From a virus, in the IMG/VR virus record IMGVR_UViG_3300037606_000123, positions 59,032-123,031 of that record: a stretch of DNA of 64,000 nucleotides. One strand, 5' to 3'. The notes beneath the pieces were generated by a model, which was given only the letters and a program-made list of their open reading frames with translations, ran no database searches and was not told the DNA's origin. A program made the position numbers and the translations under genes. Below are positions 2,480-59,587 of this stretch, one piece after another (position 1 is the first letter of the stretch; each line of letters starts with the position of its first letter).

Positions 2480-3187
2480 ATGCATCAAAAAAATTTAACA
2501 CCAATACAAGATGGTGAAATTGTTAAATTACAAAAACCTTTAAATAATACATTTTCTGATCATGTTAAAAATAATGATGGAATTGTATTGGCCACATGCG
2601 ATAATTGTAAAGCTGAAAATGTTAATATTGAAGATCACATATGTAAAACATTAGTTACATTACCTAATCCATCAGATATGGTTACAACTATAGAAAATTT
2701 TAAAAAAATAATAAAAGAAAATATGTTTACAACAAGAAAAGAATTTATTAATTCATTAAATGAAAATTCAAACAATACAGAATTAAAAACATTAGAAGAC
2801 AATATGTATTTTGTGATTAAATCATCGGAATTACGAATTACTAAAAATTCATATAATGATGGTGAAACTGGTGAAACTACACACAGTGATACTGGTTTAG
2901 AAAAAAAACAATATAAAAACGTACAAGAAATTTTAGATCAAATAGATAGTCGTCTTACAAGTGATAGTTTAACTATTATGGATGATAGAATTATTTGTAG
3001 TTATTTAGGTGGAATGTCTGATGATAATAATTATGTTGCAACTGATTCATTAAAATACAATCAATGGAAAAATGATGAATTAGAATTGTACACATTTGAT
3101 TATGATATAGTTATTGAAATTGTAGTTAAAACTAATTATACATCTCAAGATTTATCTAATTTATTAGGTATTGCAAATTATGATTAA
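2480..3187 (+). CDS. Hypothetical protein with internal capsid-targeting-like motifs
   Basis: 235-aa ORF containing MVTTIENFKKIIKEN and MFTTRKEFINSLNEN in tandem; TATATA-type late element upstream. Confidence 0.6.
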   Translation: MHQKNLTPIQDGEIVKLQKPLNNTFSDHVKNNDGIVLATCDNCKAENVNIEDHICKTLVTLPNPSDMVTTIENFKKIIKENMFTTRKEFINSLNENSNNTELKTLEDNMYFVIKSSELRITKNSYNDGETGETTHSDTGLEKKQYKNVQEILDQIDSRLTSDSLTIMDDRIICSYLGGMSDDNNYVATDSLKYNQWKNDELELYTFDYDIVIEIVVKTNYTSQDLSNLLGIANYD

Positions 3188-3205
3188 TAAATAAATAAAT
3201 TAGAT

Positions 3206-3859
3206 ATGAAAGAATATATATTTTTAAGATATGCAAATCAACCTAATCCACAAGTTACTGAGGTATTGGTAAATAGTATAGTTAAACAAGGTGCAAAACC
3301 TTTTTTTACATCATTACCTGGTGTTATGATTACATCGTTTAAAAGTGATTTAACTGAAAGTGAAATACGTGGAAAATTAGATATTTTAGATATTTTATAT
3401 GATATAGTAGAAAAGAAAAATATTGTTGTAGATAGTCCTACAAGTACTAATACAACAACAACAAATAGTAAAGAAGAATTACAACGTGAAATGGATGCAG
3501 CAGTAGAATCTGAAGATTATGAAAAAGCTGCAACATTAAGAAATAAGATTGAGCAATTATATGGTCCAAATGAATCATTAATTTTAAATTTTAATTTTTT
3601 TAAATACCTTAAAGAAAATATGTCAACAGAATTATCAGTTGAACGTAAGATTGAAATATTAGCTGAATTATCTGAATGGTCTGGTGGTTATGATCCAACA
3701 GAAATGTCGTTTGATCCTAATTATAGTGATGATAGTGATGATAATGAAACACTTAATCAATACATTGAAAATTATATTTTACAAGATGAAGTAGAATTAG
3801 TTACAGATTGGTTTGTTGATTTACAGAATGGTGCTGATGATATAAAAAAATATCAATAA
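3206..3859 (+). CDS. UVR (UvrB/UvrC) coiled-coil motif protein
   Basis: ELQREMDAAVESEDYEKAATLRNKIEQL is a close match to the UVR motif. Confidence 0.7.
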   Translation: MKEYIFLRYANQPNPQVTEVLVNSIVKQGAKPFFTSLPGVMITSFKSDLTESEIRGKLDILDILYDIVEKKNIVVDSPTSTNTTTTNSKEELQREMDAAVESEDYEKAATLRNKIEQLYGPNESLILNFNFFKYLKENMSTELSVERKIEILAELSEWSGGYDPTEMSFDPNYSDDSDDNETLNQYIENYILQDEVELVTDWFVDLQNGADDIKKYQ

Positions 3860-3861
3860 TT

Positions 3862-4617
3862 ATGATAACAAATATTAATGAGTTTAAAGTATACTTAAAT
3901 GAAAATGTTGATATGTCAACATTTTCAATCATACAAAGAAGTGATGGAATAATATCTAAATATGGTCAAGAAAATAATTTAGATATAGATGATTGTATTG
4001 AAAATTTAATATATTATAATATTATATCTGATAATTATACAGAAGACGAATTACGTATATTATTAAATAATTTAAAATTAAATCAAACACACACATTTGG
4101 TTCTAGATGGACACAAACAGAAGTCACAAAAACACATTCTAATGATACATTATTAGAAAATGTACGTATTCCACAAGAAGTTGAATTAAAGTTTGGTGTG
4201 AAGTATAAAAACATCAATTGGAATGATTTAAATCTTATTAATGTTGGTGTCTATGGTGATACTGTATTTTACGGTATTCAAATACCAGGGGAGAATAATA
4301 AATACAATAAAGGAATTATTGTTGATCTTAAAAATGAAGATGAATTAAATCGTATTGATATAATGATGGATTTTAATTTACAAGGTTTAGGATTAGGATA
4401 TAAAATTTATAAAAAAATTATAGAACAAACTGGACACATTTATTCATTATTTAATAAAAGAGTTAATGATGATGCTATTCCTAAAATTTGGGAAAAATTA
4501 AAAAACGATTCTGATATTGAAGTACATTCAAACAAAGATGGTGAAATAGCAATTTGGAAAAACATGAATGATAATGAATTAAAAAATAATTTAATTTCTA
4601 AAATAAATAACAAATAA
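3862..4617 (+). CDS. Tagged (MITNINEF) putative internal head protein with C-terminal GNAT-like domain
   Basis: N-terminus MITNINEFKVYLNE; GNAT motif A-like DFNLQGLGLGYKIY. Confidence 0.6.
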   Translation: MITNINEFKVYLNENVDMSTFSIIQRSDGIISKYGQENNLDIDDCIENLIYYNIISDNYTEDELRILLNNLKLNQTHTFGSRWTQTEVTKTHSNDTLLENVRIPQEVELKFGVKYKNINWNDLNLINVGVYGDTVFYGIQIPGENNKYNKGIIVDLKNEDELNRIDIMMDFNLQGLGLGYKIYKKIIEQTGHIYSLFNKRVNDDAIPKIWEKLKNDSDIEVHSNKDGEIAIWKNMNDNELKNNLISKINNK

Positions 4618-4669
4618 TTTTTATATTAAATTAATTATTAATATCTTTGTAAAGAATTTAATAAAGGAG

Positions 4670-57515: not shown

Positions 57516-57518
57516 TTA

Positions 57519-58265
57519 TTAAAATTTTTTTTTTATTATATTTAACGACGTTTGTAAATTATCGTTTTTTTCACTTAATGTTAATTTTGTTTTATTTAAT
57601 TCTTGTTCAATTGTTTTAAAATCATTTAACAAATCAGCTATCATTTTTCTTTCTCTTTCATCTTGTTTAGATAATTTTTTTTGCCAAATTTCTAATAGTT
57701 TTGAATCATCTACACCTGTTAATTGTGCTGTTGACATAGATATAAATTCAGGTAATATTTTTGTAGAAATCAAATTAACATTATTAATTAATTTCATATC
57801 AAATTCTCTAATACACCATTCAAAACCAATATTCTTTAATAATTTATATATATTTGAAAAATTTATATTTTTAAAAGATGTTTCATTATTAATTTTAACG
57901 TTTTCATTTTCATTCATTATTGACAGATTAAAATTAATAATACTATTAAAAAAAATAGTTCTAATAGCTACAGGCATAAAATTAATAGATACAGCATATA
58001 ACATACGTGTTCCTTTAATATCAAACCAATCAATTACAAATAATGGATTAAATTTTTCCATTTTACTTGTTTTTCCTGACAAATCATAAAACATAAAATA
58101 AAACTTACCCTTTTCAATATTGGTTAAATTTGTTTGTACAATTTTATCTGAATTACTATCATTAATATTATCAGTAATAATTTTTGCATTTATCATATAC
58201 ATTTTATTACCAACATCTTTATATTGCTTTTTAATTTTGTCTATAAAATAATCTTTAATAATCAT
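57519..58265 (-). CDS. DNA end protector-like protein (gp2-like)
   Basis: GKFYFMFYD..FNPLFVI..SINFMP..IR, adjacent to gp4 as in T4. ATGA overlap fixes the start at 58265. Confidence 0.5.
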   Translation of the reverse strand: MIIKDYFIDKIKKQYKDVGNKMYMINAKIITDNINDSNSDKIVQTNLTNIEKGKFYFMFYDLSGKTSKMEKFNPLFVIDWFDIKGTRMLYAVSINFMPVAIRTIFFNSIINFNLSIMNENENVKINNETSFKNINFSNIYKLLKNIGFEWCIREFDMKLINNVNLISTKILPEFISMSTAQLTGVDDSKLLEIWQKKLSKQDERERKMIADLLNDFKTIEQELNKTKLTLSEKNDNLQTSLNIIKKKF

Positions 58266-58750
58266 ATTGTAAATAATCCTAAATGTTTTTCTGTAACCAA
58301 CCAAAATTTCATATCTCTGTTTTTACACCATTCTACAGTGTATGTCCATTTATATTTATTTTTTTGCCATACACCTAAATCGTATTCTAAATTTTTTAAT
58401 TTTTTTTCACTTATATTACCCACTGGTATTTCAGGTTCTCTTATTTCTTTTTCTGGTTTAATTTCAATTAAAAATCTATTCATTAATCCTTCATGTTTTG
58501 TGTTTTTTGTTTCTAAATAAAAATCAGGTATATATATTCTACTATGTCCTTTATAATCAATATAGGGGATTCTAAAAACCTCGCTGCCCCACTTTAATAT
58601 CTGTTCATTCATATCACAGTAAATCATAAACTTATACTCCCACGATGAACGGTATACAATATCAACAGGATTACCTAAATATTTTTCAACATTTTTTATT
58701 TTATAATATCCTTGTTTAAATTTACCTGGTTTATTTGGAACATGTGCCAT
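58262..58750 (-). CDS. gp4: Head completion nuclease (gp4, TnsA-like)
   Basis: YRSSWE..FM..CD, WGSE, YIPDF, IEIKP, N..KW, F..VTE. Confidence 0.9.
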   Translation of the reverse strand: MAHVPNKPGKFKQGYYKIKNVEKYLGNPVDIVYRSSWEYKFMIYCDMNEQILKWGSEVFRIPYIDYKGHSRIYIPDFYLETKNTKHEGLMNRFLIEIKPEKEIREPEIPVGNISEKKLKNLEYDLGVWQKNKYKWTYTVEWCKNRDMKFWLVTEKHLGLFTI

Positions 58751-58756
58751 AATATT

Positions 58757-59587
58757 TTAATTATTTTTTATATCATTATCAATGAAACGCATTGCAAATT
58801 CTTTCGCGTTTTCTAATGTTACTGTTCCTCTGATCCCCATTTTATATTCGTCGACTAAATATACTGCACAATTATATACATGATTAAAACGATCATTAGG
58901 AACTAACTTTACAGTATATCCTAAATATTCAAATGATTCATCTTTAGGTGTATCTCTATAACTTAATAATTCTGTTTCTGTCATAATAGATTCTTTTATT
59001 GTTTGTGTTTCTCTTATAACCTCAGCACCTTTTCCTGGTATTATTTTAATTTTTTTACCATCGGCTTTTGAATAAACCCAATAATCAATTTTTTTAGTTA
59101 ATTCTTTTTTTAATTCATTTGTATATTTTTCCCCTTCTCCTGGTAAACAATAAGCAATTGTTACATGTGCGTGATAATCTGGATAATCACTTTTAAACGG
59201 AAACATTGAAGAAACCATTTTATTTAATATTATTAATTCATCTGAAACCACATCCCATTTAACTACATCAAATTTATCATTTTCGAATAATGTAATTTTA
59301 TCTGTACTAACAGTTGGACCATCAATTAAAGTAAATAATTTAATTATTTCTTCTTCATCAATTTTATCATCTGTTAAACCGTACAAAATAGTTACGTGTG
59401 GTTCAATTTCTAAACCATATTCATTTTTATCATTGTCATATATATCTTCTTTTTTAATTTTTGGATCTTTAAACCCAGTATTAAAATATCCCATTAGACA
59501 ACCAGAACTATATTCTTGATCTGTTTTCTTTTCTAATAATAATTTTTTGAATTCATTAAAAGATGGTATTAAATCTATTTCTTTCAT
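58757..59587 (-). CDS. 2H phosphoesterase (T4 gp57B/Acb1-like) with capsid-targeting-like N-terminus
   Basis: Two HxT motifs, PHVTILYG and HAHVTIAY; N-terminus SFNEFKKLLLE; next to gp2/gp4 as 57B is in T4. Confidence 0.75.
   Translation of the reverse strand: MKEIDLIPSFNEFKKLLLEKKTDQEYSSGCLMGYFNTGFKDPKIKKEDIYDNDKNEYGLEIEPHVTILYGLTDDKIDEEEIIKLFTLIDGPTVSTDKITLFENDKFDVVKWDVVSDELIILNKMVSSMFPFKSDYPDYHAHVTIAYCLPGEGEKYTNELKKELTKKIDYWVYSKADGKKIKIIPGKGAEVIRETQTIKESIMTETELLSYRDTPKDESFEYLGYTVKLVPNDRFNHVYNCAVYLVDEYKMGIRGTVTLENAKEFAMRFIDNDIKNN

Follow-up and report, generated by a model that had tools for sequence, protein, structure and literature searches.

Seven otherwise unrelated genes in a 64,000-nucleotide stretch of a huge salt-lake phage open with the same short peptide, here called the tag, which is probably a capsid-targeting propeptide of the kind known from phage T4. 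The stretch, hereafter the window, covers bases 59032–123031 of the 123-kb IMG/VR contig IMGVR_UViG_3300037606_000123, and positions below are counted within it unless another record is named. The contig has a G+C content of 23.8% and an estimated completeness of 31%. The major capsid protein of the window is 39% identical to those of 630–735-kb uncultured phages (LR756502 and others), 28% to those of Lak phages and 24% to those of the cultured Chryseobacterium phages MA9V-1/2, which belong to the jumbo phages of Bacteroidota. IMGVR_UViG_3300014205_000001 (G001), a relative whose 391-kb genome is complete and has terminal repeats, is syntenic with the window contig, and the core proteins are 50–70% identical.

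In the proposed mechanism, tagged proteins would be made late, and the tag, as an N-terminal helix, would dock its cargo on a scaffolding core formed by the tail of a protease-scaffold protein. A gp23-type shell would assemble around the loaded core, a gp21-family prohead protease would cut after the terminal hydrophobic-x-Glu of the tag, and the freed enzyme body would be retained in the head and reach the next host cell together with the DNA. The original prediction had proposed such a modular address label. The label gains support from the T4-type head, the gp21-type ending of the tag, its match to a predicted capsid site, a bridging form in phage MA9V-2, the tracking of phage lineage, the kinds of cargo and an upstream motif, whereas packaging, cleavage and injection are steps that we infer.

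The tag and its conservation as a peptide

The seven tagged open reading frames (ORFs) of the window are given below, where motif A denotes a promoter-like element described in the next section.

3862..4617, plus strand: 251 amino acids (aa), tag MITNINEFKVYLNE (3862–3903); no Pfam or PHROG match; third gene in its unit, at whose head motif A lies
18634..18990, minus strand: 118 aa, tag MITTINEFRQINE; match to phrog_6318 (unknown function, E=8.6e-8); acidic, body pI 4.1
23036..23419, plus strand: 127 aa, tag MITNINEFKKNNKE (MITNINEFK); INE at residues 5–7 only
24192..25388, plus strand: 398 aa, tag MITTINDFKNINE; isochorismatase/nicotinamidase-fold domain with a C-terminal extension; motif A 14 nucleotides (nt) before the ATG
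25385..25897, plus strand: 170 aa, tag MITNILNFKIFE; GNAT, Pfam Acetyltransf_1 33.4 bits (cut-off 20.7)
36564..36944, minus strand: 126 aa, tag MITTINKFKNNKK (MITTINKFK); INE at residues 23–25 as the first hydrophobic-x-Glu past the tag; motif A 13 nt before the ATG
43018..43422, plus strand: 134 aa, tag MITTINDFRNKINE; charged, helical-looking

All seven open with MIT[NT]I..F and sit where the original prediction had placed full-length copies. Each tagged start is the first ATG past an in-frame stop, with 1–8 open codons preceding it. A degenerate DNA pattern of the tag matched the window 7 times, against a mean of 0.14 in dinucleotide-preserving shuffles, and none of 100 shuffles reached 7. 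Three more tagged ORFs lie in the contig outside the window (10 in all), together with a stump of 16 codons, while G001 contains 19–21 and a pattern scan of IMG/VR returned 22 loci in about ten contigs. The combined clade set (contig, G001 and IMG/VR loci) comprises 67 non-redundant tagged ORFs, with the consensus MIT[TSN]INEF[KR]xx[LI][NE]E over 12–14 residues.

The tag is confined to N-termini. On a matrix built from the 67 tags, genuine copies score 10.8–27.8 (median 25.8) and no internal site scores like a typical tag. In homologue P0006, a 98-aa domain has been inserted behind the tag and the tag still stands at residue 1, so that it keeps its extreme N-terminal place. Internal or variant copies had also been claimed near 2677, 3580 and 59587 (minus strand). 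The segments are present, but they are weak, as in the first two lines below; the segment near 3580, LILNFNFFKYLKE, falls under the listing threshold of 8. The MVTTIENFKKIIKE segment aligns with VPSFEEFQE of the G001 orthologue, and the G001 orthologue of the 2H-phosphoesterase lacks the SFNEFKKLLLE segment. The two remaining lines describe decayed tags.

2480..3187, plus strand: ORF whose interior holds MVTTIENFKKIIKE, a weak tag-like segment at residue 67 (nt 2678); matrix score 8.9
58757..59587, minus strand: 2H-phosphoesterase ORF with a weak tag-like N-terminal segment, SFNEFKKLLLE, matrix score 8.7
38116..38268, minus strand: broken tagged gene, reading MITSIKI-stop; removal of one A yields a 49-aa tagged ORF; copy of motif A about 30 nt upstream
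18849–18896 of the contig (G000, locus L001), minus strand: tag stump of 16 codons, MITNINEFKMRYMKII-stop

The frameshift suspected at 38268 is real: a single surplus A in an A-run splits a tagged ORF of 49 codons. Ahead of the stump at 18849–18896 of the contig, a 31-nt AT-rich promoter-like segment is tandemly duplicated.

The end of the tag carries a recurrent site. A [LIVMF]xE triplet ends at residues 12–15 in 45 of the 67 tags (67%), compared with 14 of 127 untagged ORFs (11%; Fisher 1e-15). Many tags finish LNE↓N or INE↓N (the arrow marking the putative cut), in the same way as the predicted site of the capsid protein. In the alignment of the isochorismatase-fold family (A2), M1, T3 and the terminal Glu are invariant ahead of the domain, and the linker after the Glu is variable. 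An AlphaFold model of this family (mean pLDDT, the predicted local distance difference test score, 84.5) places the tag in a separate low-confidence helix (residues 5–14) before a well-modelled domain.

Selection holds the tag peptide and not the DNA. Codon variety at I2, T3, I5, N6, E7 and F8 is at the level predicted by genome-wide codon usage, and the pairwise same-codon frequency is 0.53 observed and 0.53 expected at T3, and 0.44 observed against 0.47 expected at I5. Both TCN and AGY codons are used for the serine at tag position 4. Since codon choice follows genome usage, the constraint acts on the peptide, and conservation at the DNA level, including a recombination site, was ruled out as its cause. 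The conserved DNA had been suggested to act as a cassette-swapping site, a proposal that these codons do not bear out.

A related explanation would see the conserved start as a nucleic-acid element, either the translation-initiation region of leaderless or Shine-Dalgarno-less mRNAs or a site for cassette recombination. It could draw on the lack of Shine-Dalgarno sequences ahead of tagged genes, the placing of motif A just 4–5 nt from many ATGs, a slight surplus of ATA at codon 2 and of AAC at codon 6, and the decayed tags and differing tagged-gene content of syntenic relatives. We regard it as very improbable, given the genome-like same-codon frequency at conserved residues and the use of both serine codon types. 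Moreover, motif A is equally spaced before many untagged genes, and an RNA or DNA element leaves the variable-length spacer ending in hydrophobic-x-Glu unexplained.

The content of the tagged family varies amid a conserved gene order: the gene at 18990 has no G001 counterpart at the syntenic spot, and two tagged genes of G001, at 86950 and 88126, are extra. These content differences and the decayed tags show that the family turns over, and they do not reveal by what mechanism.

Head module and upstream motifs

The window encodes a head module of T4 type, composed of the following genes.

55785..57515, minus strand: portal protein, T4 gp20 family; Pfam Portal_T4 167 bits; phrog_213
53261..55726, minus strand: prohead protease, T4 gp21 family, with a fused tail that is long, acidic, repetitive and scaffold-like; 821 aa; phrog_207, E=1e-23
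51167..52918, minus strand: major capsid protein, T4 gp23 family; Pfam Gp23 48 bits; predicted maturation site VNE↓N, residue 53

The protease scored 23 bits with Pfam Peptidase_S77, under the cut-off of 27. In a pairwise BLASTP with T4 gp21 (E=1e-6), the segments NRNKRFY/NRNKRLY, GEFDHP/GELNHP and VSSRAAG/VSSRGLG were aligned, and those of T4 gp21 contain the catalytic His and Ser. Neither the protease nor the capsid protein matched a solved structure in sequence searches, and the link to T4 comes from pairwise BLASTP and Pfam. The protease-scaffold protein contains 45–48 hydrophobic-x-Glu sites per 1000 residues, compared with a genome median of 21, a density in the tail that is expected of a scaffold degraded by the protease.

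The LNE/VNE sites that had been reported for both proteins were found. In the protease-scaffold protein, LNE occurs at residues 16, 286 and 303 and VNE at 164; in the capsid protein, INE occurs at 33 and VNE at 52, with four hydrophobic-x-Glu sites in the first 53 residues. The capsid propeptide segment TKWKPIVEKLG aligns with NKWKPLLEGEG of T4 gp23. In a capsid alignment that omits Lak-A1, the VNE↓N site is kept as (V/I/M)(N/K)E↓N in G001, LR756502 and LR756501, a few columns from LTE↓AEIGG of T4. Cleavage of T4 gp23 at LTE↓A has been described (PMC5694885).

The tail of the protease carries tandem repeats at residues ~355–420 and 495–525, namely AKETEI[AT]Q[KM]F[AI]E in three copies and EEIMDATEE in three copies. 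The first repeat ends F-A/I-E, as the T4 tag does (..EFIAE). That the tag copies one of the scaffold repeats was considered and is unsupported, as the 67-tag matrix gave no match in the protease-scaffold protein.

A possible role of the tag as a leader for a modifying or activating enzyme, unrelated to packaging, was also considered; the tag would then be a zymogen propeptide or resemble the leaders of ribosomally synthesised and post-translationally modified peptides (RiPPs). The invariant M1, T3 and Glu would also suit an enzyme recognition site. On the other hand, the cargo consists of folded enzymes of 60–420 aa and not of peptides, and general scans of the window proteins, none of them aimed at maturases, showed no family of maturase type. 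The protease with a fitting specificity is the prohead protease, and that of T4 acts inside the assembled prohead. We therefore consider a leader of this kind quite improbable.

A promoter-like motif is common to the tagged genes and those of morphogenesis. The AATATATA element is enriched upstream of genes, and the claim that it precedes several tagged genes or their operons holds for five: it stands directly before 24192 and 36944, and heads the transcription unit of 3862, 18990 and 23036. The corresponding motif A of G001 is TAATATATAA, typically 4–5 nt before the ATG, and it resembles the T4 late promoter, TATAAATA. A second motif of G001, motif B (GCATATAATTGT), lies about 14 nt ahead of mostly small genes. 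Each G001 gene was assigned to the motif found at the start of its co-directional unit. This placed 13 of 18 tagged genes in motif-A units, compared with 149 of 590 others (p=5e-5), and none of the 18 in motif-B units, compared with 162 of 590 others (p=5e-3). Motif A also stands ahead of the baseplate-wedge and protease genes, and a variant stands ahead of the capsid gene in both genomes. PHROG recognised 1 of 10 large motif-A genes (the baseplate wedge), and the "late" label thus rests on few genes. The spacing of motif A would yield leaderless or near-leaderless mRNAs, and no Shine-Dalgarno sequences were seen (G001 loci L030–L049; in the window, for example, 24172–24191 and 36945–36965).

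Two other enzyme genes of the window touch on the head. The ORF at 47998–49104 (plus strand) opens with a copy of the capsid-propeptide motif, KKWKPIV, and contains a portal-like segment and a dUTPase/NTP-pyrophosphatase domain; this arrangement might offer a second way of bringing an enzyme into the head. The 2H-phosphoesterase at 58757–59587 (minus strand), located in the head-gene cluster, matched Pfam 2_5_RNA_ligase2 (LigT-like) and Acb1 (anti-CBASS), both below the cut-off, and motif A is found ahead of its G001 orthologue.

Cargo and lineage-specific forms of the tag

The tagged proteins are 61–422 aa long (median 181) and mostly single-domain. A Pfam search of 68 tagged proteins identified GNAT in three, ART-PolyVal in two, and a SprT-like peptidase, NUDIX, ferritin, DUF5661 and a YunG-like domain in one each. 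The SprT-like gene lies in the same contig outside the window, and the tagged ADP-ribosyltransferases (ARTs) were found in relatives and none in the window. The domains start shortly behind the tag, at residue 16 for ART-PolyVal, 13 for NUDIX, 27 for ferritin and about 17 for the match of the isochorismatase fold. No core replication, transcription or structural protein was observed among the tagged set.

In the window, the C-terminal half of the 3862 product is possibly GNAT-like, a lead provided by an Atlas structure search that returned GNAT clusters over residues 112–236. The ORF at 24192 aligns with family A2 and is 40% identical to the tagged G001 gene 88908–89585. An exhaustive VIA search with the model of this isochorismatase-fold family gave a clear assignment, as the top 28 matches all belong to the isochorismatase family (Z 9.2–11.5; next row 7.0), and a Foldseek search of the cargo model against the PDB gave weak rows only. 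The start of the GNAT ORF at 25385 overlaps the stop of 24192. Nine close homologues of this GNAT are tagged at residue 1, and a tenth is tagged behind ten extra upstream codons, which look like a miscalled start. The ORF at 23036 has a tagged G001 orthologue at 86245–86640 (46% identical) and tagged relatives in loci L013, L020, L022 and L025. The ORF at 43018, which adjoins two large genes near the head module, has a tagged G001 orthologue at 147650–148081 (41% identical) with the same neighbours. Pfam and PHROG searches assigned no family of known function to the ORFs at 18990, 23036, 36944 and 43018, and for 36944 they returned no family match at all.

The ORFs behind the common peptide had been described as unrelated, and indeed the tag-less bodies of the contig proteins show no matches to each other in an all-against-all BLASTP. 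One old paralogous family, with bodies diverged beyond recognition and a retained N-terminus, would be suggested by tagged genes in tandem (24192/25385 in the window, 140137–141997 in G001). The bodies, however, belong to distinct, well-defined folds (GNAT, ART, SprT zincin, NUDIX, ferritin and isochorismatase-like) and are thus not diverged copies of one protein. Paralogy of the bodies was rejected on these grounds, and we find such an origin scarcely credible. A true paralogous family, separate from the short tag, is probably represented by five G001 proteins of 400–785 aa with the common N-terminus M.TKLK[YF]LK..F...WDG.YI.FFKKP, encoded at 47064–48767 (minus), 58115–59518 (plus), 63523–65223 (minus), 89618–91975 (plus) and 371337–372539 (minus).

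The wider motif scan and cargo comparison that had been suggested as a check were carried out in relatives, and they show the tag to track phage lineage and not cargo. All 15 database homologues (E<=1e-5) of the G001 88908 cargo, which corresponds to the N-terminal domain of 24192, are tagged, and the tag takes the variant form M[YF]TKI.DW[KR]IFE↓A in two of them, which come from a 313-kb contig. The LR756502 homologue of this cargo bears a tag of its own, MKYIKTYEN, and the alignment begins directly behind it. In P0012, a fusion of both neighbouring genes, the first tag is kept and a degenerate trace of the second remains at the junction. Four homologues of 25385 (P0028–P0031, from 149-kb and 411-kb contigs of another lineage) have a different N-terminal region of 60 residues, MNKNI[IV]KNI.., before the GNAT domain, and the junction ..Y[IV]KLFE↓[ST] is a possible relic of the tag ending.

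The exact tag is absent from LR756502, LR756501, Lak-A1 and MA9V-2, of which only LR756502 and MA9V-2 were scanned for tags of their own. A tblastn search of GenBank phages with a 20-aa tag consensus gave no match, and no paper on such tags in huge phages was found in the open-access literature searched. A blind scan, in which ORFs were grouped by at least 6 shared residues among positions 2–10, was applied to the contig, G001, the first 400 kb of LR756502 and MA9V-2, and then to 129 kb of T4 (about three quarters of the genome). The contig and G001 returned the MIT family. From T4 came ipII with ipIII (MKTYQEFIAEA), as well as one pair of homing endonucleases that are paralogues; the start of ipI reads MKTFKEF...ITE↓A. 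MA9V-2 returned seven ORFs, six of which open with M[KQR][TN]F..[FIT][IV]NE[SA], while the seventh (20632–21540) lacks that ending. The six are located as follows.

MA9V-2 (OR513085.1, loci L055–L065), tagged ORFs: 40608–41072 (minus), 140538–140918 (plus), 162897–163703 (plus), 166687–166935 (plus), 216401–216700 (plus), 217850–218449 (plus)

The MA9V-2 form, MKTF..FINE, is intermediate between the MIT tag and MKTYQEFIAE of T4. MA9V2_205 and MA9V2_208 are among the ORFs with this start. MA9V2_208 is flanked by the protease gene and the portal-position gene ("capsid assembly protein"), an interval that the core proteins gp67 and gp68 occupy in the T4 record. In LR756502.1 (642 kb; loci L066–L085, for example 10332–37263), at least 86 ORFs in the first 400 kb open with MKHLKxYKIFE↓S or MKHLKxYNE↓S, many of them in tandem arrays. 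A second small family in LR756502 opens with MIKKW..F. Many of the ORFs share a later acidic segment, "..DIL.DI.D"; part of the LR756502 tagged set may consist of true paralogues. The layout common to the four lineages is a Met, one or two polar residues, aromatics and a hydrophobic-x-Glu, with a lineage-specific first half. The MIT tag and MKTYQEFIAE share M1, T3, E-F and the terminal hydrophobic-x-Glu, in a peptide too short for statistics. Every tag-bearing phage of the blind scans has a head module of T4 type.

Several points weigh against a T4-like propeptide. The window tags at 23036 and 36944 have no hydrophobic-x-Glu at residues 12–15, and 8 of the 67 tags have none past residue 9 within the first 40 residues. 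The resemblance to the T4 sequence is confined to about five residues in a short peptide, and convergence could account for it. Motif A also precedes non-structural-looking genes (DenV-like, P-loop protein), so that the "late" timing is one that we infer. A literature look-up on this phage and its relatives turned up neither a virion proteome nor an N-terminal mapping nor a packaging assay; the MA9V-1 paper provides a protein gel (SDS-PAGE, sodium dodecyl sulfate–polyacrylamide gel electrophoresis). Three further points also speak for another explanation, in which the tag addresses proteins to a different partner or docks them there (another part of the virion, a compartment built by the phage, a chaperone, a translocase or a target in the host) and the Glu site is incidental or serves another protease. 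First, the bodies are mostly acidic, with a median pI of 5.2 compared with 6.3 for other proteins, whereas T4 internal proteins are basic. Second, the at least 86 tagged ORFs of LR756502 seem too many for one capsid, and the tag may thus have a wider or different role in that phage. Third, the 67-tag matrix found no similarity to the protease-scaffold protein or its tail repeats, and no docking site was found.

A strictly N-terminal, lineage-specific tag would suit any docking function. Nevertheless, we consider a different partner unlikely: the tag ending fits both the gp21-family specificity and the predicted capsid maturation site, the T4-type head accompanies the tag in all blind-scanned carriers, a small tagged gene of MA9V-2 sits between the portal-position and protease genes, and T4's own tag has the same layout. 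A T4-like capsid-targeting propeptide remains the reading that we prefer.

More broadly, and tentatively, as a conjecture that we place a little on the doubtful side, huge phages with T4-type heads might preload a large, fast-changing set of separate enzymes by means of lineage-specific versions of the capsid-targeting sequence and inject them as a takeover and counter-defence kit for the first minutes of infection. The N-terminal half of the tag would co-evolve with the scaffold, while the terminal hydrophobic-x-Glu would be held by the protease. If true, the first 14 residues alone would predict virion-carried, early-acting proteins of uncultured huge phages, and hundreds of hypothetical proteins would become defined candidates for takeover or anti-defence effectors. 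The list would add enzyme classes not known as packaged cargo, namely a nicotinamidase-fold hydrolase, ferritin and NUDIX. The T4 capsid-targeting mechanism would then be old, widespread among phages with T4-type heads and capable of being scaled up, and new orthogonal tags would be available for loading foreign proteins into phage capsids. As the cultured phage MA9V-2 has the same tag design, the idea is directly testable.

Comparison with known systems

Among known systems, the capsid-targeting sequence of T4 comes closest. This sequence is MKTYQEFIAE, and the T4 internal proteins that bear it are highly basic (PMC8442874). In both phages, a short N-terminal peptide stands on unrelated, non-essential-looking proteins, follows the layout Met-x-Thr, Glu-Phe, hydrophobic-x-Glu (a gp21-type site ends most tags here, as counted above) and accompanies a head module of gp20, gp21 and gp23 type. 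The genes are scattered among non-structural genes, and their content is variable between relatives. The T4 ip genes adjoin denV, e, nudE and tRNA genes, and the dispersal of tagged genes among those for replication and nucleotide metabolism therefore does not count against the comparison. The tag here differs in its length of 12–14 residues and in its core, MITTINEF compared with MKTYQEF. There are 10–20 tagged genes per genome here, compared with the ipII/ipIII pair in about three quarters of T4. The cargo consists mostly of acidic enzymes in contrast to small basic DNA-binding proteins, the scaffold is fused to the protease, and packaging and cleavage are here predictions from the sequences.

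T4 Alt provides a precedent for an enzyme, an ADP-ribosyltransferase, that is loaded in the head and delivered with the DNA, and relatives of the present phage tag ART-PolyVal proteins. Alt is annotated in the T4 record as carried in the particle, and it is processed by gp21 (PMC5694885). Its N-terminus, MELITELFDE, differs from the tag of the internal proteins, and the tagged ARTs here are small and single-domain.

The phages phiKZ and SPN3US are also giant phages with many packaged proteins that are processed by a gp21-related protease, and their propeptides have been proposed to target proteins to the prohead (PMC5694885, PMC10052503). The propeptides of SPN3US are mostly 79–127 residues long (20 in gp45 only) and share no single sequence (PMC5694885). 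Unlike these, one shared peptide of 12–14 residues, ending in a T4-type hydrophobic-x-Glu, is found here, and propeptides of such length were not observed.

Polyvalent proteins of phages and conjugative elements offer a further parallel (Iyer et al. 2017, as discussed in PMC7824862). ART and GNAT domains occur in injected polyvalent proteins, and ART, GNAT and SprT-like domains have been described as host-hijacking factors of jumbo phages (PMC7824862). Polyvalent proteins are giant multidomain fusions, whereas the tagged genes here are separate and small, without such fusion. The domain repertoires overlap (ART-PolyVal, GNAT and SprT-like), and the proposed purpose is the same, the delivery of effectors together with the DNA.

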